Source: Escherichia coli (GTDB lineage Bacteria; Pseudomonadota; Gammaproteobacteria; Enterobacterales; Enterobacteriaceae). Taken from it: DNA of 64,000 nt. Each line of letters opens with the position of its first letter. Position 1 is the first letter of the stretch. The notes beneath the pieces were generated by a model. The model was not told where the DNA came from and ran no database searches. It saw only the letters and a program-made list of their open reading frames with translations. Position numbers and translations under genes: made by a program. Shown here piece after piece: positions 5,321 through 53,549 of the stretch. The stretch is taken from assembly GCF_044324875.1 (NCBI RefSeq), contig NZ_CP172185.1; one strand, given 5' to 3'.

Positions 5321-5356
5321 GAGAGAAAAGACAGGGCACTGACAGCGTCGCGTTAA

Positions 5357-23449: not shown

Positions 23450-23621
23450 GCTCAGTTCCTTATATTATTTCTATGGTAGCCAGTACCTGACCAGGTTCCA
23501 CTTCCTCCCCATTCTCCACCTTAAACTGGATAGACTGGCCCCCTGAATCTCCAGACAACCAGTATCACTTAAATAAGTGATAGTCTTAATACTAGTTTTT
23601 AGACTAGTCATTGGAGAACAG

Positions 23622-23987
23622 ATGATTGATGTCTTAGGGCCGGAGAAACGCAGACGGCGTACCACACAGGAAAAGATCGCAATTGTTCAGCAGAGCTTTG
23701 AACCGGGGATGACGGTCTCCCTCGTTGCCCGGCAACATGGTGTAGCAGCCAGCCAGTTATTTCTCTGGCGTAAGCAATACCAGGAAGGAAGTCTTACTGC
23801 TGTCGCCGCCGGAGAACAGGTTGTTCCTGCCTCTGAACTTGCTGCCGCCATGAAGCAGATTAAAGAACTCCAGCGCCTGCTCGGCAAGAAAACGATGGAA
23901 AATGAACTCCTCAAAGAAGCCGTTGAATATGGACGGGCAAAAAAGTGGATAGCGCACGCGCCCTTATTGCCCGGGGATGGGGAGTAA
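23622..23987 (+). CDS. insC: IS2 InsC (OrfA)
   Basis: [52 protein letters not shown]... Confidence 0.9.
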
Positions 23988-24850: not shown

Positions 24851-25058
24851 GGGCAAATCCACTGGATATTAGTCCCGGTTGTTTCAGCATGAATTTCGTT
24901 AAACTGCTTCATTATTTCAATCAACCCAATGACGGTACTCTCCTGAACAGTGTCACCATTCTCCAGAAACGGGGCACTATCAGGTGCTGGTTTCCGATAA
25001 AATACACCAGGTAAAGGTGAAAGAATTTCTGTAACAGCCATAACATCCTCCATGTATA

Positions 25059-31296: not shown

Positions 31297-31569
31297 ACAT
31301 AAAGGAAAAGTATTATCGACCTCCTGTATATTAAAATTGAGTTAGCATAGTGACGAACAGATTTGGCAGGGCATATGTAGCCTGCTCCCCTCCGGGGTTT
31401 AAAGCTCTTTTTGTAAGCAACGGGCGCATGTGCTGACCCACTCATTTGACATCATGACGGTTTATCTGTACGTCACCATAACGCATTTTATAAGAATGTT
31501 TTTTGTCCCATAACAGGTGTCCACTGGTTAAAAAGGTGGGCACCTGTCGTTACCAGTACTGGCTTAATT

Positions 31570-31598
31570 GCTACATACGGCTGTCGGTTTACGCTTAC
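31570..31598. repeat. solo IS66-family terminal inverted repeat
   Basis: GCTACATACGGCTGTCGGTTTACGCTTAC differs at 2 of 29 positions from the right end of the IS66-family element at 41991-42019; no transposase body adjacent. Confidence 0.5.
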
Positions 31599-31682: not shown

Positions 31683-32687
31683 CTCTGAAGCAAACTTAAA
31701 ACATCTCTGCACCATTCCATGCACGCATAAAAGTCATTCCGGCATTTCATTTTACATAACATAAACAGAACAATAATAATTACAACAACATTCACACCAG
31801 CATTACAGAACACACTCTGTCTGTTGTTATCACCAGAAATATCAGGAGTATTTAAATGATTATTTCCTCACCTGCAGATTACAGGGACGCCGCAAAACAC
31901 AGACTGCCACGCTTTCTTTTTGATTACATAGACGGCGGGGCTGTTACTGAAAAAACCATGCATGAAAATATGACCTCTTTATCTTCGGTCAGCCTCCGGC
32001 AGCAGGTGCTTTGTGGCGCCGGAGCCCCCGAACTGAACACCACCATCCTTGATTCAGAATGGGCCATGCCTGTTGCTCTGGGCCCCGTCGGTGCCACTGG
32101 CATGTACGCCCGTCGTGGAGAGGTGCAGGCAGCCAGAGCGGCCTCAGCAATGAACATCCCTTATACTCTCTCAACCGTCTCCGTCTGCCCGATCGAAGAG
32201 GTCGCCGGACACGCTGACGGGCAACTGTGGTCCCAGTTATACGTCCTTCGGGATCGTGGTTATATGCAAAACGCACTTGAACGCGCCTGGACTGCAGGTA
32301 TGAAAACCCTGGTATTTACCGTCGACATGCCTGTGCCGGGCTCCCGGTACAGGGATAACCATTCAGGGATGTCAGGTCCCCACGCCACACTGCGTCAGTA
32401 TCTTCAGGCCGTTCTTCATCCCCGCTGGGCGCTGGATGTGGGAATTGCCGGTCGTCCTCTGTCATTTGGTAACATCGAAACGTACACCGGGCATAAAATG
32501 TCGATGGATGACTATATGGGCTTTATCAGCAAAAACTTTGATCCCTCTATTGCATGGAACGATCTCGAATGGATCCGTGATGGCTGGAAAGGTAAACTGA
32601 TAATAAAAGGGATCCTTGTTCCGGAAGATGCAAAAAATGCTGTACTGAACCGCCCCGGGTTTCCTGGAGAGTGTTTTATCTGTGAAC

Positions 32688-33578
32688 TCAGGCTGCCAGA
32701 TCATCGTTTCCGATGGAAGCATAATAAGATTTTTCTGCTTCTGCCGGTGGGATATGGCCCAGCCTTTCCAGCAATCGTCGATTGTTATACCAGTCCACCC
32801 ACGTGAGTGTGGCCAGCTCCACTTCTGTCCGGTTTTTCCAGCTCTTACGGTGTATTACCTCCGCTTTGTAAAGGCCATTGATGCTCTCCGCCATCGCGTT
32901 GTCATACGAGTCACCAGTACTTCCTGTTGATGCCAGTAATCCGGCTTCCTTAAGCCGCTGTGTGTAGGCCAGCGATACATACTGAGAACCTTTATCACTG
33001 TGATGGACTGTGCCGGACGGTCGACGGGCCCATAACGCCTGCTCCAGAGCATCCAGCACGAATGTCGTTTCCATAGACGATGAGACCCGCCACCCCACGA
33101 TGTATCCGGCAAACACATCAATGATGAACGCCACATAGACGACCCCCTCCCATGTGCTGACGTAAGTAAAATCAGCCACCCACAACTGGTCAGGACGTTC
33201 TGCCACAAACTGACGGTTTACGCGGTCGCCTGCGGCAACGGCTTTCCGGCTGACGGTAGTGCGGACCTTTTTACCCCGGAGAACACCGGCAAGTCCCATA
33301 ACCGCCATGAGGCGCGCCACTGTACATCTGGCTACCCTGATTCCTTCCCGTAACAACTGACGCCAGACTTTACGCACACCGTATACCTGATGATTCCCAT
33401 CGTATACGCGCAGTATCTCTTTCTTCAGCCAGTCATCGCGCTGCGCACGGGCACTGCGTTTATAAGGATGATGTCGCTGTTGCTGACAGTGGTAATACGT
33501 TGACGGGGCAATATGTAGTTCACTGCATACCGGTCCGACCCCGTACAGCTTACGCAGCTTATCCAGCAGTGGCATCAC
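32688..33578 (-). CDS. IS629 OrfB transposase
   Basis: 296-aa DDE ORF. Confidence 0.9.
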
Positions 33579-33901
33579 TTTTTCCAGAGGCGGTCGAACT
33601 CCGCCTTCGCAAAATAAGCGGAAGCCTGGCGAAGGATATCGTTACTGCGGCGCAGTTCACGATTTTCACGTTCCAGCTCTTTCAGACGCTGACGTTCAGC
33701 GGTGGTGAGCCCGCCATCACCGCCTCCGGTATCCCGCTCATGCTGGCGTACCCAGACACGCAGAGTCTCCGGTGTACAGCCAATCTTTGGGGCAATGGAA
33801 CAAATTGCCGCCCACTGTGAGTCATATTCGCCCTGACTTTCCAGAACCATACGAATCGCCCTCTGACGGACTTCGGGGGAAAAACGAGTATTTTTAGTCA
33901 T
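33575..33901 (-). CDS. IS629 OrfA
   Basis: [33 protein letters not shown]... Confidence 0.9.
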
Positions 33902-34412
33902 TCTGTTTACCTCTTTCTCAGGGAGTTTAGTCTCCAGGATTCCCGGGGCGGTTCAGTACGGCTTGGCGCGGATGGCATCATTGTCTCCAATCATGGCGGA
34001 CGTCAGCTTGATGGTGCCATCCCCACGGCCAGGGCATTACCGGCGATAGCAGATGCAGTGGGTGATGACATCACGGTACTGGCGGATTCAGGTATTCGTT
34101 CCGGTGTGGATGTGGTCCGGATGCTTGCTCTGGGGGCAAAAGGTGTGCTGCTGGGAAGAGCGTATATTTACGCACTTGCCGCTGCGGGAAAAAAAGGCGT
34201 TGAGCACCTGCTCAGACTTTATGCTGAAGATATGAAAGTCACCATGACGCTGATCGGCGCTTCTTCTCCCGCTGATATCAGCAGCAGAAATCTTGAATAT
34301 CTGGAAAAAGAATTCTCCCGACATTCATCATCCTGACCAAAGTAAACCAGGCACATATCCTCCATGCTCCCGGGACAACAGAGCGCAGTTCGGGCACTAC
34401 AGCCTTACTGGT

Positions 34413-38760: not shown

Positions 38761-39328
38761 ATCCGGTCAGATGCTCACCAGACCGCGCCCCCCATCAGTC
38801 TCCATATCCTCCCCCTTGCCCTGCCGGATGATAGCGCCACGCGACATCACCAGGTAGTGGTCCGCCGTCATGTTCCGGTGAAATCGTCCTGACACGTTTC
38901 CGGGCTCGTTATCAGCGGTTTTTGCGAATGATCGCCGCCCTGCGATGGTTGATTTATTTTATTGCGCCCCGGCGTCTGCCTTGCCAGGTACCGGAGGCGG
39001 GCTCTGAAGTACTGAGTAGGGTGAGCGCGTCAGGCCACGAAGTACTGACACGGGAGTTTGTGGCAGGCAGTGAAGTCCTGACCAGGGTAAGGGAGGGGCT
39101 GACGTGCATGCCCTGACTGTCAGCCAGGGCGCGTGGTGACTGACTTTCTCAATAACCCGCTGTCAGGCGCTCAACGCCCGACAGCAGGCCATGGCCCGGT
39201 GTGCAAAGACCTGACGGCAGGCCTTGTGTCACCCGGATAAGGTAAATCCCTCAAGAGGCAGCAACTCAGCCAGTCGGTCCTCAGGCCACTCCGGCAGGCG
39301 CGTCAGTACGTCCGTCAGCCAGGCATGT

Positions 39329-39432
39329 TGCAAAATCGCATCGTGTTCGATCGCCGATTCGCATCGTACTCGATCGCTGATTCGCATTGTCCGATCATTG
39401 ATTCGCATCCTGCAGTCACTCCTGGAATTAAC
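39329..39432 (+). mobile_element. IS21-family left-end remnant
   Basis: TGCAAAATCGCAT… with four ATTCGCAT subterminal repeats and …CCTGCAGTCACTCCTGGAATTAAC, paralleling the left end of the intact IS21-family element; sequence diverges after 39432. Confidence 0.5.
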
Positions 39433-39517
39433 TTTTCTGCATAGTCTCTACTGCTGAATTTTCTTCTCAGTAGAGGTCTTGATGGCTGTAAGCGTCAACG
39501 GAGCACCGTATTGACGC

Positions 39518-41131
39518 TTATTTATTGGTGAGTACTACGTTCCATGGCAGGAGTTCGTCAACTCGGTTGGAAGGCCATTCCGGCAGTACGCTCAGGATAT
39601 GGCGCAGATACGCTTCCGGATCGATACCGTTCAGACGGCAGGTGCCGATCAGCCCGTACAACAGTGCTCCACGCTCGCTGCCGTGATCGCTGCCAAAGAA
39701 CATAAAGTTTTTCTTTCCGAGACAGACTGCACGAAGCGCTCTTTCCGCAGCATTATTATCCGCCTCCGCCAGACCGTCATCACTGTAATAACAGAGGGCA
39801 TCCCACTGATTCAGTACATAGCTGAACGCTTCGCCCAGTCTGGATTTTTTCGACAGCGTACCATTCTTCTCCACCATCCATTCATGCAGCGACGTCAGTA
39901 ACACTTTGCTTCGCTGCTGCCTGACGGCAAGACGCTCTGACTCCGGTAATCCCCGTATTTCATCCTCGATGGCGTACAGTTCACTGATTCGCTTCAGGGC
40001 TTCTTCTGCCGTCGCACTTTTGCTGCTGATGTATACATCGTGGATTTTTCGCCGGGCATGGGCCCAGCACGCAACTTCTGTCAGTGCACCACCTTCACGT
40101 TCTGCACTGAACAACCTGTCGTAACCTGTGAACGCATCCGCCTGCAGGATACCCCGGAAGGGGCGGAGGTGTTGCTCCGGGTGTTTCCCCTGCCGGTTCG
40201 GCGAGTACGCGAACCAGACCGCTGGAGGAGATGACGAACCCACATTGCGATCATCCCGGACATACGTCCAGATACGCCCTGTTTTCGCCTTTTTCTGACC
40301 CGGTGCCAGTACCTTTACCGGTGTGTCATCAGTGTGAACCTTGCGGGTGTTCATTACATAACGGTACAGGGCATCATTCACCGGTGTCATTAACTGGCAG
40401 CACGCGTCAACCCAGTTGGAGAGTAAGGCCCGGCTCAGTTCGACACCCTGGCGGGCAAAGATTTCACTCTGACGATACAGTGGCAGGTGTTCGCAGTATT
40501 TTCCCGTTAACACGCGGGCAAGTAACCCCGGGCCCGCGATACCACGCTCTATCGGACGGGATGGTGCCGGTGCTTCAACGATACAGTCACATTTTGTACA
40601 GGCTTTTTTTACCCGTTCTGTGCGGATCACTTTCAGGGCGCTGCTCACCAGTTCCAGTTGTTCTGCACTGACTTCCCCCAGATAATCCAGCTCACCGCCA
40701 CACTCCGGGCAACAGCTTTCTTCAGGCTCCAGGCGGTTTATTTCGCGGGGCAGATGCTCCGGTAACGGACGACGATGGCGTGACTGTCGCAACTGGCGGG
40801 GAACCTGCCGGTCATCCTCTCGCCCACTGTAACGATCGCTGTCCTGTTCGCGTTGCTTCAGCAGGGCCTCAGCCTGTTCAACTTCACGACGCAGTTTTTC
40901 AGAACGGGTACCGAACAGCATCCGGCGCAGTTTTTCTATCTGAGCCCGCAGATGTTCTATTTCCCGTTCATCTTCTTCGATCTTTTCTTCGGCACGTGCC
41001 AGCGCAGAACGCAGGAAGGCCTCCGTCTCTTCAACCAGACTCAGTTGTTGGTCTTTCTGACGGAGGGCTTCAGCCTGCTCAGAGAGCAACCTTTCCAGCT
41101 CTGCGATGCGAATGAGGTATTTCTGACTCAT
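39518..41131 (-). CDS. IS66-family transposase TnpC
   Basis: 537-aa ORF, CCPECGG motif. Confidence 0.9.
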   Translation of the reverse strand: MSQKYLIRIAELERLLSEQAEALRQKDQQLSLVEETEAFLRSALARAEEKIEEDEREIEHLRAQIEKLRRMLFGTRSEKLRREVEQAEALLKQREQDSDRYSGREDDRQVPRQLRQSRHRRPLPEHLPREINRLEPEESCCPECGGELDYLGEVSAEQLELVSSALKVIRTERVKKACTKCDCIVEAPAPSRPIERGIAGPGLLARVLTGKYCEHLPLYRQSEIFARQGVELSRALLSNWVDACCQLMTPVNDALYRYVMNTRKVHTDDTPVKVLAPGQKKAKTGRIWTYVRDDRNVGSSSPPAVWFAYSPNRQGKHPEQHLRPFRGILQADAFTGYDRLFSAEREGGALTEVACWAHARRKIHDVYISSKSATAEEALKRISELYAIEDEIRGLPESERLAVRQQRSKVLLTSLHEWMVEKNGTLSKKSRLGEAFSYVLNQWDALCYYSDDGLAEADNNAAERALRAVCLGKKNFMFFGSDHGSERGALLYGLIGTCRLNGIDPEAYLRHILSVLPEWPSNRVDELLPWNVVLTNK

Positions 41132-41161
41132 GACCGTTTTTATAATGCGGTCAGGCGTTTT

Positions 41162-41512
41162 TTACAACATTGTCAGTGAGTTAAGGCGGGATGTTTTTGG
41201 CTGACGCCAGTCCAGCTTATCGAGGAGCATTACCAGTTGCGAACGGGTAATGGATACCTTGCCGTCACGTACCGCAGGCCAGATAAACTGGCCTTCCTCC
41301 AGGCGTTTGGTGAACAGGCACAGACCATCAGCATCAGCCCAAAGAATTTTAACGGTGTCACCCCGTCGGCCACGGAAGATAAACAGGTGGCCGGAGAAGG
41401 GATTATCATTCAGCACATGTTGTACCTGTTCTCCCAGTCCGTTGAAGGATTTACGCATATCGGTAACGCCGGCAACGAGCCAGATACGGGTACCTGATGG
41501 GAGTGAAATCAT
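41162..41512 (-). CDS. IS66-family TnpB (Orf2)
   Basis: 116-aa ORF MISLPSGTRIWLVAGVTDMRKSFNGL... Confidence 0.9.
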   Translation of the reverse strand: MISLPSGTRIWLVAGVTDMRKSFNGLGEQVQHVLNDNPFSGHLFIFRGRRGDTVKILWADADGLCLFTKRLEEGQFIWPAVRDGKVSITRSQLVMLLDKLDWRQPKTSRLNSLTML

Positions 41513-41934
41513 CTTCCCCTCCCGCTCAGTTCGCGGATCAACACCGTGAGCAGCTCTGGCGATGGATTTTCCAGCGTCATGTTACCGTGATGGAACTCCA
41601 CCTTGCAGGAACTGGCACTGACTCTGGTCTGAGTGGAAGTGGATAAAGACGGCGCAATGGCCGCCACAGGTTCTTTCTGCTCATCCGGCGTTATTTCTAC
41701 AGGTAATAATTCAACGCCAGTGTCAGAAGAGGTCGTTACCGGAAGACGCCGCGAAACACGCCCTTCGTTCTGCCAGAGCCTGAGCCATTTGAAAATAACA
41801 TTATCATTGACGCCATTTTCACGTGCAATCTGTGCAACACAAGCTCCAGGTTGTGATGCCAGTTCAACCATACGAAGTTTGAATTCATTCGAATAGTTTT
41901 TACGAGGTTCTTTTCGCCAGTCCTGTAATTCCAT
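41509..41934 (-). CDS. IS66-family TnpA (Orf1)
   Basis: 141-aa ORF, 4-bp overlap with tnpB. Confidence 0.85.
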   Translation of the reverse strand: MELQDWRKEPRKNYSNEFKLRMVELASQPGACVAQIARENGVNDNVIFKWLRLWQNEGRVSRRLPVTTSSDTGVELLPVEITPDEQKEPVAAIAPSLSTSTQTRVSASSCKVEFHHGNMTLENPSPELLTVLIRELSGRGR

Positions 41935-42019
41935 ACTTAGATGTCCGTCTATATCAGATGGGCGTCTAAGTTACCAATTTTCGTCTGATGGCTACATACG
42001 GCGGTCAGTTTACGCTTAC

Positions 42020-42290
42020 CATTGAGGCAATTGAAAAACCACTTTCTTCCCTGCCTTACTCACTTTCCCGTCACATCCTGGAACATCTGCGTAAACTCAC
42101 CAGTCACGAACCCGTGATTGGCATTATGGGGAAAAGCGGGGCCGGTAAATCCTCACTCTGTAATGCACTGTTTCAGGGGGAGGTCACCCCGGTCAGTGAT
42201 GTTCACGCCGGCACCCGGGAAGTGCGGCGCTTCCGTCTGAGTGGCCACGGTCACAGCATGATTATCACTGACCTGCCCGGGGTGGGCGAG
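42020..42290 (+). pseudogene. YeeP-like GTPase gene fragment (second copy), truncated on both sides
   Basis: Encodes IEAIEKPLSSLPYSLSRHILEHLRKLTSHEPVIGIMGKSGAGKSS…DLPGVGE, near-identical to the full gene at 13161-14033; 5' end replaced by the IS66 end, 3' end cut by IS629 at GVGE. Confidence 0.7.
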
Positions 42291-42332
42291 TGAACCGCCC
42301 CGGGTTTCCTGGAGAGTGTTTTATCTGTGAAC

Positions 42333-43223
42333 TCAGGCTGCCAGATCATCGTTTCCGATGGAAGCATAATAAGCTTTTTCTGCTTCTGCCGGTGGGATAT
42401 GGCCCAGCCTTTCCAGCAATCGTCGATTGTTATACCAGTCCACCCACGTGAGTGTGGCCAGCTCCACTTCTGTCCGGTTTTTCCAGCTCTTACGGTGTAT
42501 TACCTCCGCTTTGTAAAGGCCATTGATGCTCTCCGCCATCGCGTTGTCATACGAGTCACCAGTACTTCCTGTTGATGCCAGTAATCCGGCTTCCTTAAGC
42601 CGCTGTGTGTAGGCCAGCGATACATACTGAGAACCTTTATCACTGTGATGGACTGTGCCGGACGGTCGACGGGCCCATAACGCCTGCTCCAGAGCATCCA
42701 GCACGAATGTCGTTTCCATAGACGATGAGACCCGCCACCCCACGATGTATCCGGCAAACACATCAATGATGAACGCCACATAGACGACCCCCTGCCATGT
42801 GCTGACGTAAGTAAAATCAGCCACCCACAACTGGTCAGGACGTTCTGCCACAAACTGACGGTTTACGCGGTCGCCTGCGGCAACGGCTTTCCGGCTGACG
42901 GTAGTGCGGACCTTTTTACCCCGGAGAACACCGGCAAGTCCCATAACCGCCATGAGGCGCGCCACTGTACATCTGGCTACCCTGATTCCTTCCCGTAACA
43001 ACTGACGCCAGACTTTACGCACACCGTATACCTGATGATTCCCATCGTATACGCGCAGTATCTCTTTCTTCAGCCAGTCATCGCGCTGCGCACGGGCACT
43101 GCGTTTATCCGGATGATGTCGCTGTTGCTGACAGTGGTAATACGTTGACGGGGCAATATGTAGTTCACTGCATACCGGTCCGACCCCGTACAGCTTACGC
43201 AGCTTATCCAGCAGTGGCATCAC
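42333..43223 (-). CDS. IS629 OrfB transposase
   Basis: 296-aa DDE ORF. Confidence 0.9.
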
Positions 43224-43546
43224 TTTTTCCAGAGGCGGTCGAACTCCGCCTTCGCAAAATAAGCGGAAGCCTGGCGAAGGATATCGTTACTGCGGCGCAG
43301 TTCACGATTTTCACGTTCCAGCTCTTTCAGACGCTGACGTTCAGCGGTGGTGAGCCCGCCATCACCGCCTCCGGTATCCCGCTCATGCTGGCGTACCCAG
43401 ACACGCAGAGTCTCCGGTGTACAGCCAATCTTTGGGGCAATGGAACAAATTGCCGCCCACTGTGAGTCATATTCGCCCTGACTTTCCAGAACCATACGAA
43501 TCGCCCTCTGACGGACTTCGGGGGAAAAACGAGTATTTTTAGTCAT
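43220..43546 (-). CDS. IS629 OrfA
   Basis: 108-aa ORF. Confidence 0.9.
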
Positions 43547-43600
43547 TCTGTTTACCTCTTTCTCAGGGAGTTTAGTCTCCAGGATTCCCGGGGCGGTTCA

Positions 43601-44608
43601 GTACTGCCGAATTAGCCCATTTGTGTTCTCATTTGTTCCCCGCTGCCAAGGACTCTGAGGATCGCAGAAGTAAACTTTAACGCCGGTGCTGACAGTAAAT
43701 TCTAGATGTCTGGCCAGTTCCATTCCTCTGTCCCATGTCAGTGATTTTCTGAGTTCTGACGGTAAACTCAGGAATTTGTCGGTAAGAGCCTGATTTACTG
43801 AGACAGAATCTTTGCCCCTGAGTCTAAGGATGATCGTATAACGTGATTTTCGGTCTACAAGTGTGGCTATATGAGAGTTTTTTGTACCTGAGACTAAATC
43901 GCCCTCCCAATGCCCCAGAGAGCGTCTGTTATCGATATTTCGGGAACGTTCGTGAATTGGTGTTCCGTTCACTATGTTAATCGTACCTCTTTCGCCTTTG
44001 CGGGTATGACGCCTGCCATGGCGAAGGCTATGCGACCGTCGCAGATGCTGTATATTCAGGTGGTGTAGCGCTTCACGGCTACGAAAGTACAGCGTTTTAT
44101 AAATTGTCTCAGGTGATATTCGCAGCGTTTTTTGACGTGGTTTTGTTCGCCTTAACCATCCTGATATTTGCTCTGGAGACCATTTCATCTCCAGCTTTTC
44201 CAGAACAAGCTTTCGCAATGGTAAATTTTGATCCAGTAAGCACGGTTTTGGCCTTTTCGCCATTCTGTTGGCTCGGTTATTAGCATCAACAGCTTTGTAA
44301 TAGCGTCTGCCCCGATTACGCTGAACTTCACGTGAGATCGTCGAAGGACTGCGATTCAGCGCAGTAGCTATCGCACGAATGCTCATTTTGGCTGACAAAC
44401 CAGCTCGTATCTCCTCGCGCTCAGACAGTGTCAGGTGAGCTACAGCCCGCTTACGCTCATGGGGTTTTATGCCGCCAGTATCCCTTAACATAGTGAAGAT
44501 CGTTCCGGGTTTTGAACCCAGGATATTCGCTATTTCACTGAAGCCTGTTCCGTTCTTCCATAGTTCAAAAACAGAGGCTTTTTCCTCTGCTGTAAATGTT
44601 CGTCTCAT
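43601..44608 (-). pseudogene. IS30 transposase, C-terminally truncated
   Basis: [38 protein letters not shown]…; last residues replaced by read-through into IS629. Confidence 0.85.
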
Positions 44609-44670
44609 TCAAAAAACCTCCGCAACCCCATGTTTTCACATAACTGTTGCGTTGACCAATTGAATCTACA
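43601..44670 (-). mobile_element. IS30, 3'-truncated
   Basis: Left IR TGTAGATTCAATTGGTCAACGCAACAG (reverse complement ends at 44670); transposase ORF from ATG 44608 runs straight into the IS629 end at 43600. Confidence 0.85.
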
Positions 44671-45005
44671 GTAGCCTTTTTTAATATTTCATTTTCCATT
44701 TCAATACGTTGTAGCTTTTTCCTGAGCTCACGGATTTCAATTTGTTCCGGGGTAATGGGGGAGGCTTTTGGTGTTTTTCCCTGCCGCTCATCACGTAATT
44801 GTTTCACCCATCGCGTCATTGTGGAAAGGCCGACATCCATAGCGCTGGCTGCATCTGCCACGGTGTAATTCTGGTCAACGACCAGTTGAGCGGATTCGCG
44901 TTTAAACTCTGCGCTGAAATTTCTTTTTTTCATTATGGCACCTGTGTTGTTCTGAGGTGAGCATATCACCTCTGTTCAGGTGGCCAAATTCAGTAAACCA
45001 CTTCA
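44671..45005 (-). mobile_element. IS911 5' fragment (left IR plus start of orfA), cut by IS30
   Basis: IR TGAAGTGGTTTACTGAATTTGGCCACC (reverse complement ends at 45005); orf[47 protein letters not shown]… from ATG 44933. Confidence 0.8.
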
Positions 45006-45164
45006 ATCACCCTGCGGGCATGCCGCAGGTCACTGCCGCTCAGGTTCTCCACCGTCACACCCGGTGGGATTGTTGGGTTTCTCATCGTGAGTTACCGGTT
45101 CAATATTCCAGACAGACTCGCGGTTCATTTAAGCATCCATGCCCGCCCTGAACTCCGGGCACAC
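45006..45164 (-). mobile_element. group II intron 5' fragment (first 159 nt), duplicate of 58800-58958
   Basis: Identical to the 5' end of the full intron (GTGTGCCCGGAGTTCAGGGCGGGCATGGATGC…); cut by the IS911 end at 45005. Confidence 0.75.
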
Positions 45165-45372
45165 TATAGGTCACATCACCGCACCACACCTGATTTGGCT
45201 CGGTCACGGCGAACTGCCGTTCAAGGTAGTTAGGGATAGCAACATGTTCATGACCACCACGTTTATACCGGTGAGTCGGCTGCTGACAGCTGACCAGCCC
45301 CAGCTCCTTGGCAATTTGACGTCCTTTCAGGCCTGGTGACCCACCTAATAACTCTGAGACTGCCTTCAGCAA
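45165..45372 (-). pseudogene. IS911 OrfB N-terminal fragment (5' exon of the intron insertion)
   Basis: …[36 protein letters not shown] ends one base before the intron 5' GTGTG; upstream IS body is missing and the fragment abuts the hsdR stop. Confidence 0.7.
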
Positions 45373-45386
45373 ACCATCACTCCTTT

Positions 45387-48300
45387 CTACCTACCCACCA
45401 TTCGTTGCATACTTTGCGTCCACGAGGCTTTAAATGCTGAATCTCCTGCGAACAACTTGTAGAGCTCAAGTTCATCTTTACGGCGTTGCAGCATGATTTC
45501 CTTGAGCATTTTTTCGAAGGCCAAATCTCGATTATGGGGATCTGGGTTGTTTTTGTATTTCGATTCGAAGTCAGGGTGATTGCGGATACTTTCAGCGATG
45601 TTCACGAACTTAACCTTTTGCTCTTCAGGTGTGGCACTCCAGCCCTGGAACCATCGCTCATTAAATGTGCGAATGATTTCATCCAGCGGGTCAGTTTCTT
45701 TTTCACCGCCATGCACCCCACGTGGGTTCGGATTTTGAGGATCAAGCTCCGCTTCTTGGTCACTAAGTTTAATGCTGTGGTTAAGCTTCACACGTTGCAA
45801 ACCGTATGAACTCAGATCGACAGAATCGAGAAGCTCATCAATAGCATCAGCATCGGGATCTTCCACTTTCAATTTCGGTATTAAAAACTTCAGGAACCAA
45901 AACAGTTTTTCCCAGCTGACCATTTCATAAGGCATGATAGAAGCCATCTGCCCATAGATTTTAACGAACTGTTTGGCTTTAATCTTAAAGTCCACTTTAG
46001 CTTCAGCTTCAAGATCTAGTTCATGGTCAAACCGCGCTGCGGCAATATCAATGATTGGACTGAGTGTTTGGGCGTCTTCATTCTTGAAATAACGCGTCAC
46101 AAAGTCTTCAACTTCATACCACTCGTACACACCGACATCGTCCATTTCATCTTTCAACTCGTGCAGTACGTTTATATCTGTAGCTTGGGACAATGACGTT
46201 GCTGTATAGAAAGGATCGAATGCTGATTGAATATCTTCAACCGAGTTGAAAAAATCCAGGATAAACAAGTCTTCTGTTTTCTTCCCTAGCTTAGGTGCAC
46301 TGCGATTGAGCCTAGATAGCGCCTGAACACACAAGACACTGGCGAGCTTCTTATCTACATACATGGCGCAAAGCTTAGGCTGGTCAAACCCAGTCAGATA
46401 CTTGTTAGCAACCACTAAAAGTCGATACTCATCGGTATCAAACATATCTTTGGTATCTGACTCGGCAAAACCATTAATATCTGCTTCGGTATATTCAATA
46501 CCATCAACTTCTTTGGTTCCTGAGAAAGCAATGGCAACTTTAAACGGGTTTCCTTGCTCCTCAAGTATTCGCCTTATCGCTTTGTAGTATCGAATGGCCG
46601 CCTCAATATTTTGAGTGACCACCATTCCTTTACCTTTACCTTTGAGCTTTTTCGTATTCACGACATGCGGAACAAAATGCTCCAGCATAATCTCTGCCTT
46701 GATATCAATTGTTTGCTGGCTTCGTTCTACATAAGCTCTGAGTTTTTTCTGCGCCTTTTTGGTATCAAACTCAGGGTTATCAGCAATTGATTTCTCAATC
46801 TCATAATAACTTTTGTACGTCGTATAATTTGCCAGCACATCCAAGATGAAGCCTTCTTCAATGGCTTGTTTCATCGAATACAAGTGAAACGGCTTGTAAG
46901 AGCCATCTTCTTGGCGTTGACCAAATTTCTCCAAAGTGCTGTTTTTTGGTGTCGCTGTAAATGCCAGGTACGACGCATTCCCGCGCATCTTACGCGATCT
47001 CATCGCCTGAAGGATTTTATCCTGAGCATCTTCTGCCTCTTCGACTTCAGACTTGCCCATCGCTCGGTTCATATTGTCATGCGCCGAACCAGACTGTGAG
47101 CTGTGTGCTTCATCGATGATCACTGCAAAGCGCTTGTCACTAAGATCGGCGATACCATCAATAATGAACGGGAATTTCTGAATCGTCGTTATAATAATCT
47201 TTTTGCCATTCTCCAGCGCCTGCTTAAGCTCAGAAGACTTATTCGCTGGGGCAATAATGTTCTTTACTTCAGAAAACTCTTTAATGTTATCCCGCAGCTG
47301 CTTGTCCAATAGGCGTCTATCGGTGACCACAATCACAGAGTCAAACAACGGCTGCTCCAAGCTTTTTCCGCCTGCCACATCAGACGAAGCAGGATAGGTT
47401 TCAATTAGCTGATAAGCTGCCCAGGTAATCGAGTTAGACTTACCTGAACCGGCTGAGTGTTGAATTAAGTAAGTCTGACCGACACCGTGCTGGGCGGCAT
47501 GGTCTACTAATTTTCTCACCACATCCAATTGATGGTATCGAGGAAAGAACAGGGTTCGCTTTGGTAATGGATCTTTGCTTGACCCATCCAGACGCACAAA
47601 ATGCTGAATAATATTCGCCAAGCTGTCTTTAGTGAATACTTCTTGCCATAGGTATGCCGTTTTATGGCCAGATGGATTCGGCGGGTTGCCTTGTCCAAGA
47701 TTGTGACCTTTATTGAACGGCAAGAAGAATGTACTGCTACCTGATAACTTGGTGGTCATATACACTTCGTCGGTATCGACCGCCATATGCACTAGGCAGC
47801 GGCCAAAGGTCAGCAATGGCTGAGTTGCATCCCGATCATCTCGATACTGCTTTTGGCCGTGATAACGTGCTGTTTGCCCGGTCCATGCGTTCTTCAACTC
47901 CAGCGTTATCAAGGGTATTCCGTTGATAAACAATACCATGTCGATTTCTTGTAGGGGATTTACCATGGAATAGCGCACTTGGCGAGTACAACTAAACACG
48001 TTATCTGCAAAGTTTTGCTTTACCTTCTCACTACTACTTGCCAAAGGGGCTGGATAGAGCAAATTGAAATGAGCATCGTCTACGCTTAGCCCTTTCTTAA
48101 GTAAATGAAGAATGCCATGCTTCTTAATCAGTCGGTCAAATCGTTCGAGTAACTTACGTTGCCAATCTGAGGGGTTGTTCTTTTGCAGTTTGGCCAACTC
48201 TACTTCTTGTGTCTTTTGCAGAAATTGCCAGAAAAAACGTTCATCAATGGCATATTGCATATTAAAGTCACTAGCAGCACCAATGAAGTATCCAGCACCC

Positions 48301-48404
48301 AGTGACTGCTGACTCAGTCCCTCTTTAAGCTCTTCAGCACTGATCCCAGCCAGACATTTCTCAATGGCCGACTCTAATGCTTGTTCATTGGTTTGACTGA
48401 CCAT
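45387..48404 (-). CDS. hsdR: Type I restriction enzyme R subunit (HsdR)
   Basis: 1005-aa ORF with N-terminal PD-(D/E)xK nuclease motif (DMVLF…ITLELK), SF2 helicase motifs ([12 protein letters not shown]-type IIDEAHSSQ); 14 bp after the upstream gene with AAGGGA RBS. Confidence 0.9.
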
Positions 48405-48418
48405 AATTGTAAATTCCC

Positions 48419-49582
48419 TTAATCAAAATTCTTCTGTTTCATTGCCTCAGCCGCTTTTTGCAGCGGTCCTTTTAAGGCTTTTTCTAACTTTGTCATCTGC
48501 TCTAAGTGCCACGCAACCGCTTGGGGCCAAGTCTCTTTGTTAAACCCGTCAGCTTTGGTCGAAAACTGGATACGGCAAGATTTCTTCTCATCCAGCCTCA
48601 TCCACTCAAGTTCTGCACCAAAAGTATGCTCAATGTCTTGTTTGGACTGACTCAACAAATCAAAAAGGTATTTATTCTCTTCGGTAACCCCACGGCTGAT
48701 CCAAAGCTCTACTCGAAGCTCTTTTTGCAGAAATATCAGGTTATACGGACATCCACTTAGCCCTGAGCCTGCTGATAACCAATGATCTTTGCTTGGGCTA
48801 ATGTTGTTATAGAGTTGGCAAGAGCTTTTCTGAAACGCCTCTAAGGCACGCTCCCAGTACTCGCGACGCACGGTATGGCGGTTTTTTAGTACCACTTCGG
48901 TGGTTTTTTCTTCCGCTTCCTTGGCATTAATGCCGATCATCAACTCTTTCGCTTCTGGCGTTGGAATGATCTGGTCAATATTAATCAGTAGCTGTTCACC
49001 CAGTGAATAAGGCGTGATTTTGAAGCAGGCAATGCTAATGCCTTGACCCAATAACCACAGCGCGGTGCTGGTCACTTCTTTGCGAAAGTTTGCCGCAACT
49101 AACATAATGCGCTGGCTGTTACCCAGGTTGAGCTTTAACTCATCGAGATCGGGCGCATCCAAAAACTCACATATTCTAGCAGAGGCACTTGCAGGGGTAT
49201 TAAACAAGTCAACCTCTCCTGTTACAGGCTCATAGCGGTCTAAGTACTGCTGGTAAATTTCAACGATTTGCGCTTTGGTTAAACTTGCGCAGTAGGAGGC
49301 ATATTTAAGCGCCTGCCACACCACATCGCGGCCACTATCGTCCAGCTTGTTTTCAATAATGACCAAGTTGCCATCTTTATCCAGTGCCAGTAAATCTAAG
49401 CGTTCACGGGTGTCATCAAAGCCATCGAACTCTTTTTGAATAATCAGCAGCTCTTCACCCAGTGCGGAAGGCTCGTGTGCCAACCATTCCTGAAGATTTT
49501 TGCGCTCAGTAAAGCCCAACTCACTGAATCTCTTCGTCTTAACCGGACTAATCCTGTTGGTCTGATAATTTACCGTGAACAT
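48419..49582 (-). CDS. hypothetical protein embedded between hsdS and hsdR; N-terminal PD-(D/E)xK-like nuclease motif, family not assigned
   Basis: 387-aa ORF; motif LDLLALDKDGNLVIIENK (D…E-x-K); no Walker A; ancestral hsdS stop is 9 nt before its ATG; same position that PrrC occupies in the EcoprrI locus but not PrrC-like in sequence. Confidence 0.7.
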   Translation of the reverse strand: MFTVNYQTNRISPVKTKRFSELGFTERKNLQEWLAHEPSALGEELLIIQKEFDGFDDTRERLDLLALDKDGNLVIIENKLDDSGRDVVWQALKYASYCASLTKAQIVEIYQQYLDRYEPVTGEVDLFNTPASASARICEFLDAPDLDELKLNLGNSQRIMLVAANFRKEVTSTALWLLGQGISIACFKITPYSLGEQLLINIDQIIPTPEAKELMIGINAKEAEEKTTEVVLKNRHTVRREYWERALEAFQKSSCQLYNNISPSKDHWLSAGSGLSGCPYNLIFLQKELRVELWISRGVTEENKYLFDLLSQSKQDIEHTFGAELEWMRLDEKKSCRIQFSTKADGFNKETWPQAVAWHLEQMTKLEKALKGPLQKAAEAMKQKNFD

Positions 49583-49646
49583 ATTCGCTTCCTATTGCTC
49601 AACCTGAACCGCCCCGGGTTTCCTGGAGAGTGTTTTATCTGTGAAC

Positions 49647-50537
49647 TCAGGCTGCCAGATCATCGTTTCCGATGGAAGCATAATAAGCTTTTTCTGCTTC
49701 TGCCGGTGGGATATGGCCCAGCCTTTCCAGCAATCGTCGATTGTTATACCAGTCCACCCACGTGAGTGTGGCCAGCTCCACTTCTGTCCGGTTTTTCCAG
49801 CTCTTACGGTGTATTACCTCCGCTTTGTAAAGGCCATTGATGCTCTCCGCCATCGCGTTGTCATACGAGTCACCAGTACTTCCTGTTGATGCCAGTAATC
49901 CGGCTTCCTTAAGCCGCTGTGTGTAGGCCAGCGATACATACTGAGAACCTTTATCACTGTGATGGACTGTGCCGGACGGTCGACGGGCCCATAACGCCTG
50001 CTCCAGAGCATCCAGCACGAATGTCGTTTCCATAGACGATGAGACCCGCCACCCCACGATGTATCCGGCAAACACATCAATGATGAACGCCACATAGACG
50101 ACCCCCTGCCATGTGCTGACGTAAGTAAAATCAGCCACCCACAACTGGTCAGGACGTTCTGCCACAAACTGACGGTTTACGCGGTCGCCTGCGGCAACGG
50201 CTTTCCGGCTGACGGTAGTGCGGACCTTTTTACCCCGGAGAACACCGGCAAGTCCCATAACCGCCATGAGGCGCGCCACTGTACATCTGGCTACCCTGAT
50301 TCCTTCCCGTAACAACTGACGCCAGACTTTACGCACACCGTATACCTGATGATTCCCATCGTATACGCGCAGTATCTCTTTCTTCAGCCAGTCATCGCGC
50401 TGCGCACGGGCACTGCGTTTATCCGGATGATGTCGCTGTTGCTGACAGTGGTAATACGTTGACGGGGCAATATGTAGTTCACTGCATACCGGTCCGACCC
50501 CGTACAGCTTACGCAGCTTATCCAGCAGTGGCATCAC
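49647..50537 (-). CDS. IS629 OrfB transposase
   Basis: 296-aa DDE ORF. Confidence 0.9.
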
Positions 50538-50860
50538 TTTTTCCAGAGGCGGTCGAACTCCGCCTTCGCAAAATAAGCGGAAGCCTGGCGAAGGATATCG
50601 TTACTGCGGCGCAGTTCACGATTTTCACGTTCCAGCTCTTTCAGACGCTGACGTTCAGCGGTGGTGAGCCCGCCATCACCGCCTCCGGTATCCCGCTCAT
50701 GCTGGCGTACCCAGACACGCAGAGTCTCCGGTGTACAGCCAATCTTTGGGGCAATGGAACAAATTGCCGCCCACTGTGAGTCATATTCGCCCTGACTTTC
50801 CAGAACCATACGAATCGCCCTCTGACGGACTTCGGGGGAAAAACGAGTATTTTTAGTCAT
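50534..50860 (-). CDS. IS629 OrfA
   Basis: 108-aa ORF. Confidence 0.9.
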
Positions 50861-50914
50861 TCTGTTTACCTCTTTCTCAGGGAGTTTAGTCTCCAGGATT
50901 CCCGGGGCGGTTCA

Positions 50915-51526
50915 TTGGGAAGTTGTGCCTCTAAAAAGGTTGGCGGTCTTGAGCCCTTCTGTGAAAGTTTCAAATAGAAAGTCCAAAGAATTAGTTACTT
51001 TCTTAGCGATAGAAAAGGTTTCAACAGATGGATTTATTGATCAAGATACATTAATGCCTATATGTGATGTGAGCCAAGGTTTTACGGTTTTTAACCGGGG
51101 GGATGTGATTGTTGCAAAAATTACACCTTGCTTTGAAAATGGGAAATCTGCTTGGCTTAACAATCTTCAAACTGAGTTTGGTTACGGCTCAACCGAGTTT
51201 CACGTTTTAAGATGTGGTCAGAGAATTATAGGAAGTTTTCTCTACTTAATCGTTAGTTCGCCCCTTTTTCTTAATGCCGGTGAGGCTATGATGACTGGTT
51301 CAGCTGGTCAGAAGCGCGTGCCTAGTTCATTTATCCAAAACTTTCCTACCGCAATTCCCGGAGTTGCAGAGCAAGAAAAAATAGTATCAAAGGTAAAAGA
51401 GCTGTTTTCACAGATTGATGTTGTTGTGGCTTCTACGGTAAATCAAATCGAAAAGCTCAAAGAATACAAAACCACCCTGATCAACAGCGCCGTGACAGGA
51501 AAAATAAAAATCACCCCAGAAATGGT
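50915..51526 (+). pseudogene. hsdS: hsdS 3' segment (second target-recognition domain and C-terminal conserved region), inverted relative to the rest of hsdS
   Basis: Plus-strand ORF …VPLKRLAVLSPSVKVSNRK… continues the minus-strand hsdS 5' part when reverse-complemented (…DWIGDIPEH + WEVVPLKRL…); bounded by inverted IS629 copies. Confidence 0.8.
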
Positions 51527-51580
51527 TGAACCGCCCCGGGAATCCTGGAGACTAAACTCCCTGAGAAAGAGGTAAACAGA

Positions 51581-51907
51581 ATGACTAAAAATACTCGTTT
51601 TTCCCCCGAAGTCCGTCAGAGGGCGATTCGTATGGTTCTGGAAAGTCAGGGCGAATATGACTCACAGTGGGCGGCAATTTGTTCCATTGCCCCAAAGATT
51701 GGCTGTACACCGGAGACTCTGCGTGTCTGGGTACGCCAGCATGAGCGGGATACCGGAGGCGGTGATGGCGGGCTCACCACCGCTGAACGTCAGCGTCTGA
51801 AAGAGCTGGAACGTGAAAATCGTGAACTGCGCCGCAGTAACGATATCCTTCGCCAGGCTTCCGCTTATTTTGCGAAGGCGGAGTTCGACCGCCTCTGGAA
51901 AAAGTGA
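51581..51907 (+). CDS. IS629 OrfA
   Basis: 108-aa ORF. Confidence 0.9.
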
Positions 51908-52794
51908 TGCCACTGCTGGATAAGCTGCGTAAGCTGTACGGGGTCGGACCGGTATGCAGTGAACTACATATTGCCCCGTCAACGTATTACCACTGTCAGC
52001 AACAGCGACATCATCCGGATAAACGCAGTGCCCGTGCGCAGCGCGATGACTGGCTGAAGAAAGAGATACTGCGCGTATACGATGGGAATCATCAGGTATA
52101 CGGTGTGCGTAAAGTCTGGCGTCAGTTGTTACGGGAAGGAATCAGGGTAGCCAGATGTACAGTGGCGCGCCTCATGGCGGTTATGGGACTTGCCGGTGTT
52201 CTCCGGGGTAAAAAGGTCCGCACTACCGTCAGCCGGAAAGCCGTTGCCGCAGGCGACCGCGTAAACCGTCAGTTTGTGGCAGAACGTCCTGACCAGTTGT
52301 GGGTGGCTGATTTTACTTACGTCAGCACATGGCAGGGGGTCGTCTATGTGGCGTTCATCATTGATGTGTTTGCCGGATACATCGTGGGGTGGCGGGTCTC
52401 ATCGTCTATGGAAACGACATTCGTGCTGGATGCTCTGGAGCAGGCGTTATGGGCCCGTCGACCGTCCGGCACAGTCCATCACAGTGATAAAGGTTCTCAG
52501 TATGTATCGCTGGCCTACACACAGCGGCTTAAGGAAGCCGGATTACTGGCATCAACAGGAAGTACTGGTGACTCGTATGACAACGCGATGGCGGAGAGCA
52601 TCAATGGCCTTTACAAAGCGGAGGTAATACACCGTAAGAGCTGGAAAAACCGGACAGAAGTGGAGCTGGCCACACTCACGTGGGTGGACTGGTATAACAA
52701 TCGACGATTGCTGGAAAGGCTGGGCCATATCCCACCGGCAGAAGCAGAAAAAGCTTATTATGCTTCCATCGGAAACGATGATCTGGCAGCCTGA
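51904..52794 (+). CDS. IS629 OrfB transposase
   Basis: 296-aa DDE ORF. Confidence 0.9.
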
Positions 52795-52836
52795 GTTCAC
52801 AGATAAAACACTCTCCAGGAAACCCGGGGCGGTTCA

Positions 52837-53543
52837 CAATGCTCTGGAATATCTCCAATCCAATCCACACCGGAGTCTTTCATTGGCACATTGGGATCAA
52901 GCCCTTGGGTCACCGCCTGTTGGATGATGATCTGCTTATGTTCTTTTAACAGATTAATTTGCTTTTCTTTGATCGAAATCGCTTCGTCGATTAGAGCGAT
53001 TTTCTTGTCTAGGAAGTTGGCGATACGGGTTTGTTGCTCATGGGGAGGAACAAACGTCTTAAAACTCAGAAATGAATCTTTAGGAATTGTATTTCTCAGG
53101 CCACGATAAAGCGGTTTAAGCATCTTTTTTGCATCAAGGTTCATATAAAAATAGTATAAAAACCTATTATCAAAATTGTCATTTAGTTCAAAAACGGTAT
53201 ATGCACCAGTAATCATCCCATTAAATGGCGACAACCCAACAGTTCTGGGTGTTTCTTCCACGTCGAACAAGCAGAAAATGAAATCTCCACACTGCACTTC
53301 TTGATAAGTATCGAACTCTGCTGGGAACTTACCCTCTGGGTTTTCCATATCACGCTTAATCACACCTCTGAGAGTAAGCGATAGCAAATCATATTCGCTT
53401 GAGCGTTTTCCAACCTGTTTTTTCTTCAAGCGAAAGATGTGCTTATTAGCTAATAAGCTCCAAGACGCAGGAATATCCCCTAGCCATTCAACACCTGAAT
53501 CCTTATAAACCTCATATTTCGGCATTTCAGAAATCTTCATCAT
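52837..53543 (-). pseudogene. hsdS: hsdS 5' part (first target-recognition domain and central conserved region)
   Basis: MMKISEMPKYEVYKDSGVEWLGDIPASW… with repeated KDSGV(E/D)W(L/I)GDIP motif at the start of each TRD; interrupted after …DIPEH by IS629. Confidence 0.85.
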
Positions 53544-53549
53544 AACGAC

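Follow-up and report, generated by a model that had tools for sequence, protein, structure and literature searches.

An IS66-family hybrid and a yeeP stub as a probable double rearrangement scar between two CP4-type islands of Escherichia coli

Results

A scar at the seam of two islands

The segment described here comes from a 64,000-nt stretch of the Escherichia coli contig NZ_CP172185.1 (the window) and comprises an IS66-family element, a truncated yeeP-like GTPase gene (yeeP') and an IS629-type element. We propose that it is very probably a double rearrangement scar at the seam of two different CP4-type genomic islands, produced by IS recombination. The window's island would thus be a fusion of two such islands stitched together through their IS copies, which would account for an intact-looking IS without target duplication, and the yeeP stub would be a relic of the second island, not a duplicate. 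The features concerned are as follows.

38980-39328, minus strand: 3' end of an older IS66-family remnant, cut by the IS21-family element; its left end possibly lies further left, as the query began at 38980
39329-39487, plus strand: left end of an IS21-family element (IS21'), about 159 bp, broken at TGATGGCT, from comparison with LH50-c
39488-42019, minus strand: hybrid IS66-family element of ISEc23 type, 2532 bp, from sequence, open reading frames, Pfam and RefSeq
39518-41131, minus strand: tnpC of this element
41162-41512, minus strand: tnpB of this element
41509-41934, minus strand: tnpA of this element
39488-40430, minus strand: Part A of the element, canonical ISEc23 type (IS positions 1-943), from 136 informative sites
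40431-40486, no strand: putative interval of the crossover between two IS copies, from the switch of informative sites
40487-42019, minus strand: Part B of the element, BEN5202 type (IS positions 1000-2532), from 48 informative sites
41988-42293, plus strand: chimeric open reading frame of 101 aa, with ATG plus 11 codons from the ISEc23 end, 90 codons from yeeP and the stop from IS629
42020-42290, plus strand: yeeP' pseudogene, 5' fragment of 271 bp (about codons 7-96 of 290), from alignment, Pfam and RefSeq
42291-43600, minus strand: IS629/IS1203-type IS3-family element, 1310 bp, without target duplication; putative second rearrangement joint
43601-44670, minus strand: IS30 without its last ~151 bp, first element of a block collinear with AR_0085 (IS30, IS911', hsdR and onward), from comparison with GF4 and AR_0085; the far end is computed from an IS30 length that we take to be 1221 bp
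13161-14033, minus strand: full-length yeeP-like GTPase gene of the first island, the comparison paralogue (Pfam MMR_HSR1)

An ISEc23-type element between unrelated flanks

The element at 39488-42019 carries the three-gene set of the IS66 family (tnpA with a helix-turn-helix, tnpB of the IS66 Orf2 type and tnpC with a DDE domain). Pfam returned HTH_Tnp_1, TnpB_IS66 (E = 2e-36) and DDE_Tnp_IS66 (E = 4e-97), the last accompanied in tnpC by zf-IS66, LZ_Tnp_IS66 and IS66_C, and ISEc23 is the family label that RefSeq gives to identical DNA. The ends read GTAAGCGTCAAC... on the left and ...TTTACGCTTAC on the right (also read as ...GTTTACGCTTAC); the terminal inverted repeats begin with GTAAGCG, as is characteristic of IS66/ISEc23, and 18 of the 24 terminal bases are complementary. 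ISEc23 is present in the window only once.

What this copy lacks is the 8-bp target-site duplication of its family. As the sequence-only reading of this DNA had noticed, different 8-mers flank it, TGATGGCT (39480-39487) and CATTGAGG (42020-42027), which agree at 2 of 8 positions, and inspection of the flanks revealed no longer or shifted duplication around the element either. A decayed or shifted duplication was rejected as well, since the flanks come from unrelated sequences. Both the ISEc8 element of the same window, which served as control (10376-12817, 2442 bp, perfect 8-bp duplication CTTCATTA), and the BEN5202 copy described below have proper duplications. The missing duplication reflects the history of this copy, not its membership of IS66.

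On the left, the unoccupied site (site A) is found in LH50-c, the only one of 5426 complete E. coli genomes searched in which the flank is uninterrupted. There the sequence runs from ...tcttgatggct directly into AAAAAGAAAATC..., through TGATGGCT and on into an annotated IS21-family istA. The window's intact IS21-family element (2626-5262) has an end similar to the terminus TGCAAAATCGCATCG of IS21'. In all 8 other genomes with this flank, the IS21 portion past the break is absent. The junction of IS21' with ISEc23 is present in 8 genomes, including CM2 and 23CRST013, where it has other right-hand partners and the yeeP junction is missing; thus, the left junction is older than the yeeP junction and independent of it. 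Further left, 38980-39331 shares 96.6% identity with the 3' ends of annotated IS66-family transposases and ~80% with ISEc49, and on identical DNA of GF4 RefSeq labels the equivalent of 39230-39328 a transposase domain-containing protein, missing its N-terminus.

On the right, the site (site B) is empty in AR_0085, which reads ...tctgatgccattgaggcaattg... uninterrupted. In BEN5202 a related IS occupies it in the same position and orientation, with a perfect 8-bp duplication of CATTGAGG.

A two-part mosaic inside the IS

Compared with the canonical ISEc23 of O145:H28 and with the BEN5202 copy, the window element falls into two blocks. In Part A it equals the canonical type, unlike BEN5202, at 136 informative sites, with no site of the opposite pattern; in Part B it equals BEN5202, unlike the canonical type, at 48 sites, with 4 of the opposite pattern (136/0 left of IS position 971 against 4/48 right of it; Fisher exact p = 1.7e-40). 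A-type sites run up to IS position 943 (window 40430) and B-type sites begin at position 1000 (window 40487); the parental copies are ~5% divergent, so that the crossover can be placed within 56 bp. In the matching comparison, Part A of the copy that CM2 carries at this IS21' junction has a pattern equivalent to that of the window. Four sites of Part B (IS positions 1043, 1814, 1815 and 2028) run against the simple two-block pattern; the first of them borders on a gap in the aligned BEN5202 copy, and the tnpC of that copy carries a frameshift according to its annotation. Full-length copies at least 99.9% identical to the hybrid occur at this locus only, in 5 complete genomes, and the best full-length match at other loci is 98.1% identical. 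It could in principle be the BEN5202 element that is the recombinant, but this would require two separate events with a common breakpoint.

The sequence-only reading had favored recombination between IS copies over simple insertion. This view is strongly supported by the unrelated flanks with empty sites in other genomes, by the properly duplicated IS of BEN5202 at the yeeP site and by the clean mosaic.

The yeeP stub belongs to another island

A truncated yeeP-like copy does lie between the IS66 end and IS629, as that reading had described. Its homology begins 16–17 nt past the ATG of the full copy; it retains the P-loop and terminates at DLPGVGE, just past the DxxG motif, so that MMR_HSR1 matches over profile positions 2–57 of 113, the first half only. 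A functional YeeP GTPase has the complete G1 to G4/G5 set in ~290 aa, whereas here there is a 101-aa reading frame, the stop codon of which (TGA) is the first three bases of the IS629-type element. RefSeq labels it 'GTPase, incomplete, missing C-terminus' (pseudogene), and the stub is a non-functional pseudogene. In the BEN5202 annotation, the equivalent IS-borne start is used for an otherwise full-length GTPase.

Between 42019-42290 and the full copy at 13161-14033, 254 of 272 nt are identical (93.4%, 18 differences, E = 1e-116); the encoded proteins share 88 of 90 residues, with 15 codons differing synonymously and 2 non-synonymously. This divergence of 6.6%, mostly synonymous, marks the two as old paralogues, and yeeP-like GTPase paralogues occupy a median of 2 places per genome. 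Against the intact yeeP genes of AR_0085, BEN5202 and others, the stub is 100% identical; the resident full copy is only ~94% identical to the AR_0085-type yeeP.

The second joint and the right-hand block

The IS629 copy at 42291-43600 has the orfA/orfB organization with an rve core, the 1310-bp length and the TGAACCGCCCCGG terminal repeats of its type (Pfam HTH_Tnp_1, HTH_21 and rve; RefSeq, programmed-frameshift IS3-family transposase). It lacks the 3–4 bp target duplication of the IS3 family, its flanks being ...GCGAG and GTACTG..., that is, GAG and GTA. IS629 is present in the window in four full copies and a partial one, besides several other IS elements. A (G)TAC duplication surrounds the copy at 32646-33955, and the copies at 49605-50914 and 51527-52836 are 100% identical to the one beside the stub. 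The latter two, inverted relative to each other, enclose an inverted 612-bp piece of hsdS with the flank triplets ACC/GGT and TTG/CAA; at 49605-52836, near the stub, IS629-driven recombination can thus be seen directly. In TUM1886 and 673, the IS30-hsdRSM block has been lost between two direct IS629 sequences.

To the right of IS629 the AR_0085-type island continues with IS30, hsdRSM, a group II intron and scrY (a restriction-modification and sucrose section). Positions 43600-62313 are collinear with the tRNA-Ile island of AR_0085 at 99.2–99.95% identity (99.95% for 43600-49604) and in the same orientation; in orientation the yeeP piece alone differs, being turned around with respect to the IS30-hsdRSM-scrY block that comes after it in AR_0085. 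GF4 carries 188 bp extra at the IS629/IS30 joint, namely 37 bp of an older IS3-family element and the IS30 end. The AR_0085-type island sits at tRNA-Ile beside mug and the window's island at serX, and the yee modules of the two types are 89–94% identical overall. The stub's complete identity to the yeeP of the other island and the presence of that island's remainder right of IS629 together indicate a fusion of two distinct islands, not of a duplicated one. An inverted island, with the yee module beside the tRNA gene, was considered and dropped, as AR_0085 and GF4 are arranged in this way too, the integrase lying at the other end.

Discussion

A proposed order of events

The history that we propose has two parents. 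In a serX island with lldP and an MFS transporter gene, a canonical ISEc23 (copy A) would have entered an IS21-family element near its left terminus, at TGATGGCT; in none of the 5426 genomes does TGATGGCT stand at both ends of a simply inserted copy A, and so this step is one that we infer. A BEN5202-type element (copy B) had inserted 17 nt into the yeeP gene at the head of an AR_0085-type island, with duplication of CATTGAGG. A and B would then have undergone homologous recombination, with the crossover at 40431-40486, to give the hybrid, in which the left ~950 bp are of canonical ISEc23 type and joined to the broken IS21-family end and the right ~1530 bp are of copy B type and joined to yeeP. 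Site A would account for the left flank of such a hybrid and site B for the right one, hence the absence of a target duplication. A second event, between IS629 copies, probably shaped the right side; it would explain why yeeP ends after 271 bp at an IS629 without duplication and why the fragment is flipped.

Two orders appear equally economical. In the first, two inverted IS629 copies would recombine and invert the segment with the yeeP 5' end, after which A x B would delete the intervening DNA. In the second, A x B would invert the intervening DNA, and IS629 x IS629 would then delete it. Both routes would leave a single island in place of two, without Ag43, the dynamin-like gene, the yeeP sequence beyond the stub and whatever else belonged to the second yee module. 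The copies may have met on one chromosome, with islands in tandem, or as incoming against resident DNA.

Chimeric probes for four intermediate or simple-insertion junctions were run against the 5426 complete genomes. The junction predicted for a simple copy A insertion or the reciprocal hybrid is GTTTACGCTTAC-TGATGGCT-AAAAAGAAAATCTCC, and no IS-occupied reciprocal of the IS21-family site was found among them. The yeeP upstream sequence with CATTGAGG and the IS left end is present in BEN5202 only, besides insertions at other yeeP sites. For IS629, neither the predicted reciprocal junction with the rest of yeeP (GGGGCGGTTCA-GAG-AGCCGGGACAGGGATG) nor its left end (reverse complement, then CGC-CTTTATCCGTGACAAC) joined to the rest of the old IS3-family element beside IS30 occurs in these genomes, the latter giving just unrelated two-piece plasmid matches. 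With no intermediates among the 5426 genomes, the order of events could not be fixed. The missing reciprocal ISEc23 junctions are consistent with loss of the intervening DNA; within the window, the missing partners (the rest of the IS21 element, the yeeP upstream sequence, the second Ag43 and dynamin genes) had only paralogous matches of 74–95% identity.

Other explanations

A possible, though clearly less probable, variant differs in where the IS copies met. Thus, an incoming AR_0085/BEN5202-type fragment with copy B, yeeP, hsd and scr would have replaced resident DNA, by one crossover in the resident copy A and another further right, in a lineage that never had a second island in tandem. In its favor, the AR_0085-type island sits at another tRNA gene than the window's, the search turned up no genome in which two such islands stand in tandem at serX, and the right block is nearly identical to AR_0085. 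It would still leave the flipping and truncation of yeeP to a separate IS629 event, however, and neither the second crossover point nor a donor with the flipped yeeP'-IS629-IS30 arrangement and no IS21' junction was found.

It is quite improbable that a single ISEc23 in yeeP made an adjacent deletion by its own transposase, through intramolecular transposition into the IS21 end and with no second copy involved. Such deletions likewise leave an IS without target duplication, and the intervening DNA is indeed gone; but a two-type mosaic within the IS is not predicted, and CM2 and 23CRST013 have the left junction apart from yeeP.

The sequence-only reading had also offered island duplication followed by deletion, and had itself named excessive divergence of the two yeeP copies as the finding that would count against it. 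Two yeeP-like sequences do lie 28 kb apart in one island region, but it is very improbable that this genome recently duplicated its island or its yeeP and then lost most of the second copy by deletion. Instead of near-identity, the alignment gave 93.4% over 272 nt with 15 synonymous codon changes, too divergent for a recent duplication; the stub matches a different island's yeeP perfectly, and the two yee modules are themselves 89–94% identical overall. The island type whose yeeP the stub matches exists in AR_0085, BEN5202 and others; it is a different island and not a duplicate.

Least probable is a misassembly across IS copies, for which so many IS629 and other IS elements pose a classic risk, since ISEc23 is single-copy in the window and the arrangement IS21'-ISEc23-yeeP'-IS629 recurs at 99.9–100% identity in GF4, TUM1886, 673, 135 and LR-31, complete genomes that are independent of one another, with Switzerland and Japan as well as human and chicken sources among their origins.

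Target choice and implications

There is a resemblance among the target sites in IS21 (TGATGGCT) and in yeeP (TGATGCCAT and CATTGAGG), and also between these and TCTGATGGCTAC, a subterminal sequence of the IS. Insertions that arose independently are concentrated within the first ~200 nt of yeeP, in different paralogues (BEN5202, ECCTRSRTH03 and O145:H28). We nevertheless think it unlikely that ISEc23-group elements choose their targets by sequence. On the same unlikely reading, the in-frame ATG at the IS end might let some insertions redirect the expression of yeeP and not kill it.

IS-mediated fusion of two islands is an ordinary and well-known kind of genome rearrangement. The present case is a clean worked example, with the crossover confined to a short interval, and a caution for annotation, since a chimeric reading frame with an IS-borne start and stop may be called a gene. 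Its value is mainly in bookkeeping, and it raises no new biological question.

Comparison with known systems

The window element agrees with ISEc23/ISEc43 (IS66 family, E. coli) in its 2532-bp length, GTAAGCG...CGCTTAC ends, tnpA-tnpB-tnpC order and all Pfam IS66 domains. Unlike the widespread ISEc23 copies, to which it is 98.1% identical, it is a chimera of two subtypes, without target duplication and confined to one locus.

The genes yeeP, ykfA and yfjP are, as we take it, the GTPase genes of CP4-type cryptic prophage islands such as CP4-44. As there, an MMR_HSR1-domain GTPase gene heads an Ag43-to-cbtA/cbeA module beside a tRNA gene; here, however, just the first ~96 codons are left, joined to an IS-borne start and an IS629-borne stop. 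The yeeP of CP4-44 in E. coli K-12 is likewise a pseudogene.

IS629 copy number and location vary among close E. coli relatives (PMC7430833). Multiple identical IS629 copies are shared with the IS629/IS1203-associated rearrangements of E. coli, although the strain here is not O157 and our case is based on flank triplets and relatives, not on experiment.

A parallel in outcome is the IS66 x IS66 deletion of Agrobacterium tumefaciens pAt15955/pAtAch5, which likewise left a single IS66 element with unrelated 8-bp flanks. In pAt15955 the two flanks correspond to the outer flanks of two different parental insertions, one from each, from which homologous recombination between the copies was inferred (PMC6778807). 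There, both parental copies were seen with their own duplications and were identical to each other, whereas here one occupied parental site is available (BEN5202), the parents are divergent enough for the crossover to be mapped, and the event would also have fused two islands.

Layout of the locus

The window covers a genomic-island region of E. coli and is near-identical to the island that strain GF4 (NZ_CP172217) carries at serX (tRNA-Ser), except that it has additional IS copies. The feature under study is a scar where two distinct islands fused, and it includes a dead gene stub. Its coordinates, as assigned by the sequence-only reading, proved accurate, and the yeeP-like fragment is indeed cut by the IS66-family end on one side and IS629 on the other:

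39488-42019, minus strand (tnpC, tnpB, tnpA), IS66-family element of 2532 bp, ends GTAAGCGTCAAC... and ...TTTACGCTTAC
42020-42290, 5' fragment of a yeeP-like GTPase gene, directly right of the IS66-family element
42291-43600, IS629/IS1203-type element of 1310 bp, adjoining the fragment on the right

A Pfam search found the full set of IS66 domains in the first element, and RefSeq labels identical DNA 'ISEc23 family'. As that reading had also remarked, the 8-mers beside it differ (TGATGGCT left, CATTGAGG right). The control ISEc8 at 10376-12817 carries a perfect 8-bp duplication (CTTCATTA); therefore, intact IS66-family insertions in this window do retain theirs.

The two junctions

In AR_0085, the right-junction site is empty and reads ...tctgatgccattgaggcaattg..., and in BEN5202 exactly that yeeP position is occupied, in the same orientation, by a 2531-bp IS66-family element annotated as ISEc43 family and bracketed by two copies of CATTGAGG. 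The right junction is thus a genuine insertion site. On the left, the flank at 39329-39487 is an IS21-family left end, which in LH50-c runs on via TGATGGCT into a gene annotated as istA. This continuation is absent from all 8 other genomes with the flank, and in all 8 the break falls at the identical base; ISEc23 was present there in each of the four genomes inspected (GF4, TUM1886, CM2, 23CRST013). The right-hand partner of this flank is the yeeP fragment in GF4, TUM1886, 673, 135, LR-31 and TUM9803; in CM2 it is another IS66-family tail together with an integrase fragment, and in 23CRST013 an IS629 truncation. Because the partners vary, the IS21-ISEc23 junction predates, and is independent of, the link to yeeP.

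In LH50-c (L011 1-30000), the island with lldP, an MFS transporter gene and the IS21 element extends via Rpn, zinc-ribbon, Gp2 and TOTE genes, and the integrase at its end adjoins clpA. The clpA neighbourhood is that of serW rather than serX, which hints at a large rearrangement between the two tRNA-Ser loci in this strain.

A mosaic element

The window element was aligned with the BEN5202 element and canonical ISEc23 copies (O145:H28 RM12761, ECCTRSRTH03, CM2), with positions counted from 39488. At 136 informative sites through position 943 it matches canonical ISEc23, unlike BEN5202, and at 48 sites from position 1000 on it matches BEN5202, unlike canonical ISEc23. Only 4 sites run contrary (Fisher exact p = 1.7e-40), one of which, at 1043, adjoins an alignment gap in the BEN5202 copy. 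The crossover maps to window 40431-40486. The full-length hybrid occurs at at least 99.9% identity in only 5 complete genomes, each time at this locus; canonical ISEc23, 98.1% identical to it, is scattered across many loci and plasmids. Such a mosaic is the signature of in-place homologous recombination between two IS66-family copies. Recombination between one parental copy resident in the IS21 end and another in yeeP would account for the mismatched flanks, and the earlier suggestion of recombination between IS copies, rather than simple insertion, is thereby well supported.

The copy of ISEc23 that CM2 has at the same IS21 junction (L010 9121-11900) is itself a hybrid: its canonical part ends at about position 1900-2026, where a different IS66-family element, with a 678-nt tnpA, takes over. 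Here the same resident copy recombined a second time, independently.

Source of the yeeP stub

The sequence-only reading had also offered island duplication followed by deletion, and had suggested aligning the two yeeP-like copies. The nucleotide alignment of the fragment with the full gene (13161-14033, minus strand) gave 254/272 identical nt (93.4%, E = 1e-116); 15 of the 17 differing codons are synonymous and 88/90 residues are identical. This pattern indicates long separation under purifying selection, and the copies are paralogues, not recent duplicates. In E. coli, yeeP-like genes are multi-copy (per-genome median, 2 places). Intact genes annotated as 'GTPase family protein' in AR_0085, WCHEC025985, M159-1, GD33, B1W1, ECGC74, BEN5202 and others match the fragment at 100% identity. 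With copies at 93.4% identity and a stub matching the distinct AR_0085-type island, duplication followed by deletion is not supported.

The identical AR_0085 gene stands at the head of a yee module (Ag43, dynamin-like, RdcB ... CbtA/CbeA, DUF4942) adjoining tRNA-Ile. Beyond yeeP, in the opposite direction, come an hsdM N-terminal fragment, an old IS3-family remnant, IS30, an IS911 fragment and hsdR-DUF4268-hsdS-hsdM, then a group II intron within an IS629-like copy, an IS66 tnpC fragment and an IS1414 fragment, followed by sucrose/raffinose genes and lastly an integrase. Window 43600-62313 is collinear with this non-yee side, in the same orientation, at 99.2-99.95% identity. On the right, therefore, the window's island consists of the right part of an AR_0085-type island. 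The yee module of the window itself (265-14127) is just 74-94% identical to that of AR_0085. The stub is a leftover of the left-hand module of the AR_0085-type island. Relative to AR_0085 it is flipped, the hsdM fragment is absent, as is most of the old IS3-family remnant, and IS629 sits at the joint.

At ~56200-59753, a group II intron, whose ltrA is annotated in both GF4 and AR_0085, interrupts an IS629-like copy recognisable only as IS629 positions 516-1310 (58959-59753, 99.7% identity).

History of the fusion

The IS629 at the joint has no duplication (flanks GAG vs GTA). Two two-step histories fit the data equally well. An IS629-pair inversion may have flipped the yeeP 5'-end segment, after which an IS66 x IS66 deletion would have removed the DNA between; or an IS66 x IS66 inversion may have come first and an IS629 x IS629 deletion second. 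Junction probes found none of the predicted reciprocal junctions among 5426 genomes, so either order is possible. The partners may have met in one chromosome or as incoming and resident DNA.

GF4 is longer by 188 bp at the right end of the joint IS629 (43600/43601): it retains 37 bp from the old IS3-family remnant and the final ~151 bp of IS30, and a further small deletion beside IS629 has therefore occurred in the window strain. Other parts of the window also show recombination driven by IS629. At 49605-52836, an inverted 612-bp hsdS piece lies between two inverted, 100%-identical IS629 copies, which split this type I restriction specificity gene, intact in GF4; the flank triplets (ACC...TTG, GGT...CAA) fit two separate 3-bp-duplication insertions, then recombination. 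In TUM1886 and 673, the entire IS30-hsdRSM-intron block is gone between two direct IS629 sequences.

The source strain has had a recent burst of IS activity, and three insertions have no counterpart in GF4:

2626-5262, IS21-family element, 8-bp overlap CTTAAGTG
23533-24860, ~1.33-kb insert, identified as IS2 by its end sequences
32646-33955, IS629, (G)TAC duplication

At 31567-31598, 32 bp ending in CGCTTAC match the right terminal repeat of ISEc23 (90.6%) with no IS body alongside; this orphan probably survives from an earlier IS66-family element.

Insertions into yeeP genes and known systems

Different yeeP paralogues carry independent insertions of ISEc23-group elements, each within the first ~200 nt:

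L005 (BEN5202) 4469-7000, duplication CATTGAGG
L008 (ECCTRSRTH03) 4615-7146, duplication GATGCCAT, 5 bp away
L009 (O145:H28 RM12761) 4770-7301, duplication GTTTCAGG

The search that yielded these sites was biased to one orientation, and the list is no measure of enrichment. The IS21 site TGATGGCT resembles the yeeP site TGATGCCAT and the subterminal TCTGATGGCTAC of the IS itself.

The ISEc23 end supplies an ATG in frame with yeeP (L005 of BEN5202, 6969-7856; window 41988-42293). The window ORF is chimeric, with the ATG and opening 11 codons from the ISEc23 end, 90 codons from yeeP, and a stop TGA that is the first triplet of IS629. In BEN5202, a full-length GTPase is annotated from the IS-borne start, so these insertions may swap the N-terminus instead of inactivating the gene.

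Events of this kind are textbook material, and RefSeq already annotates the elements. The same logic for mismatched flanks has been documented in Agrobacterium, where the outer 8-bp flanks of a lone surviving IS66 are those of two parental copies (PMC6778807).
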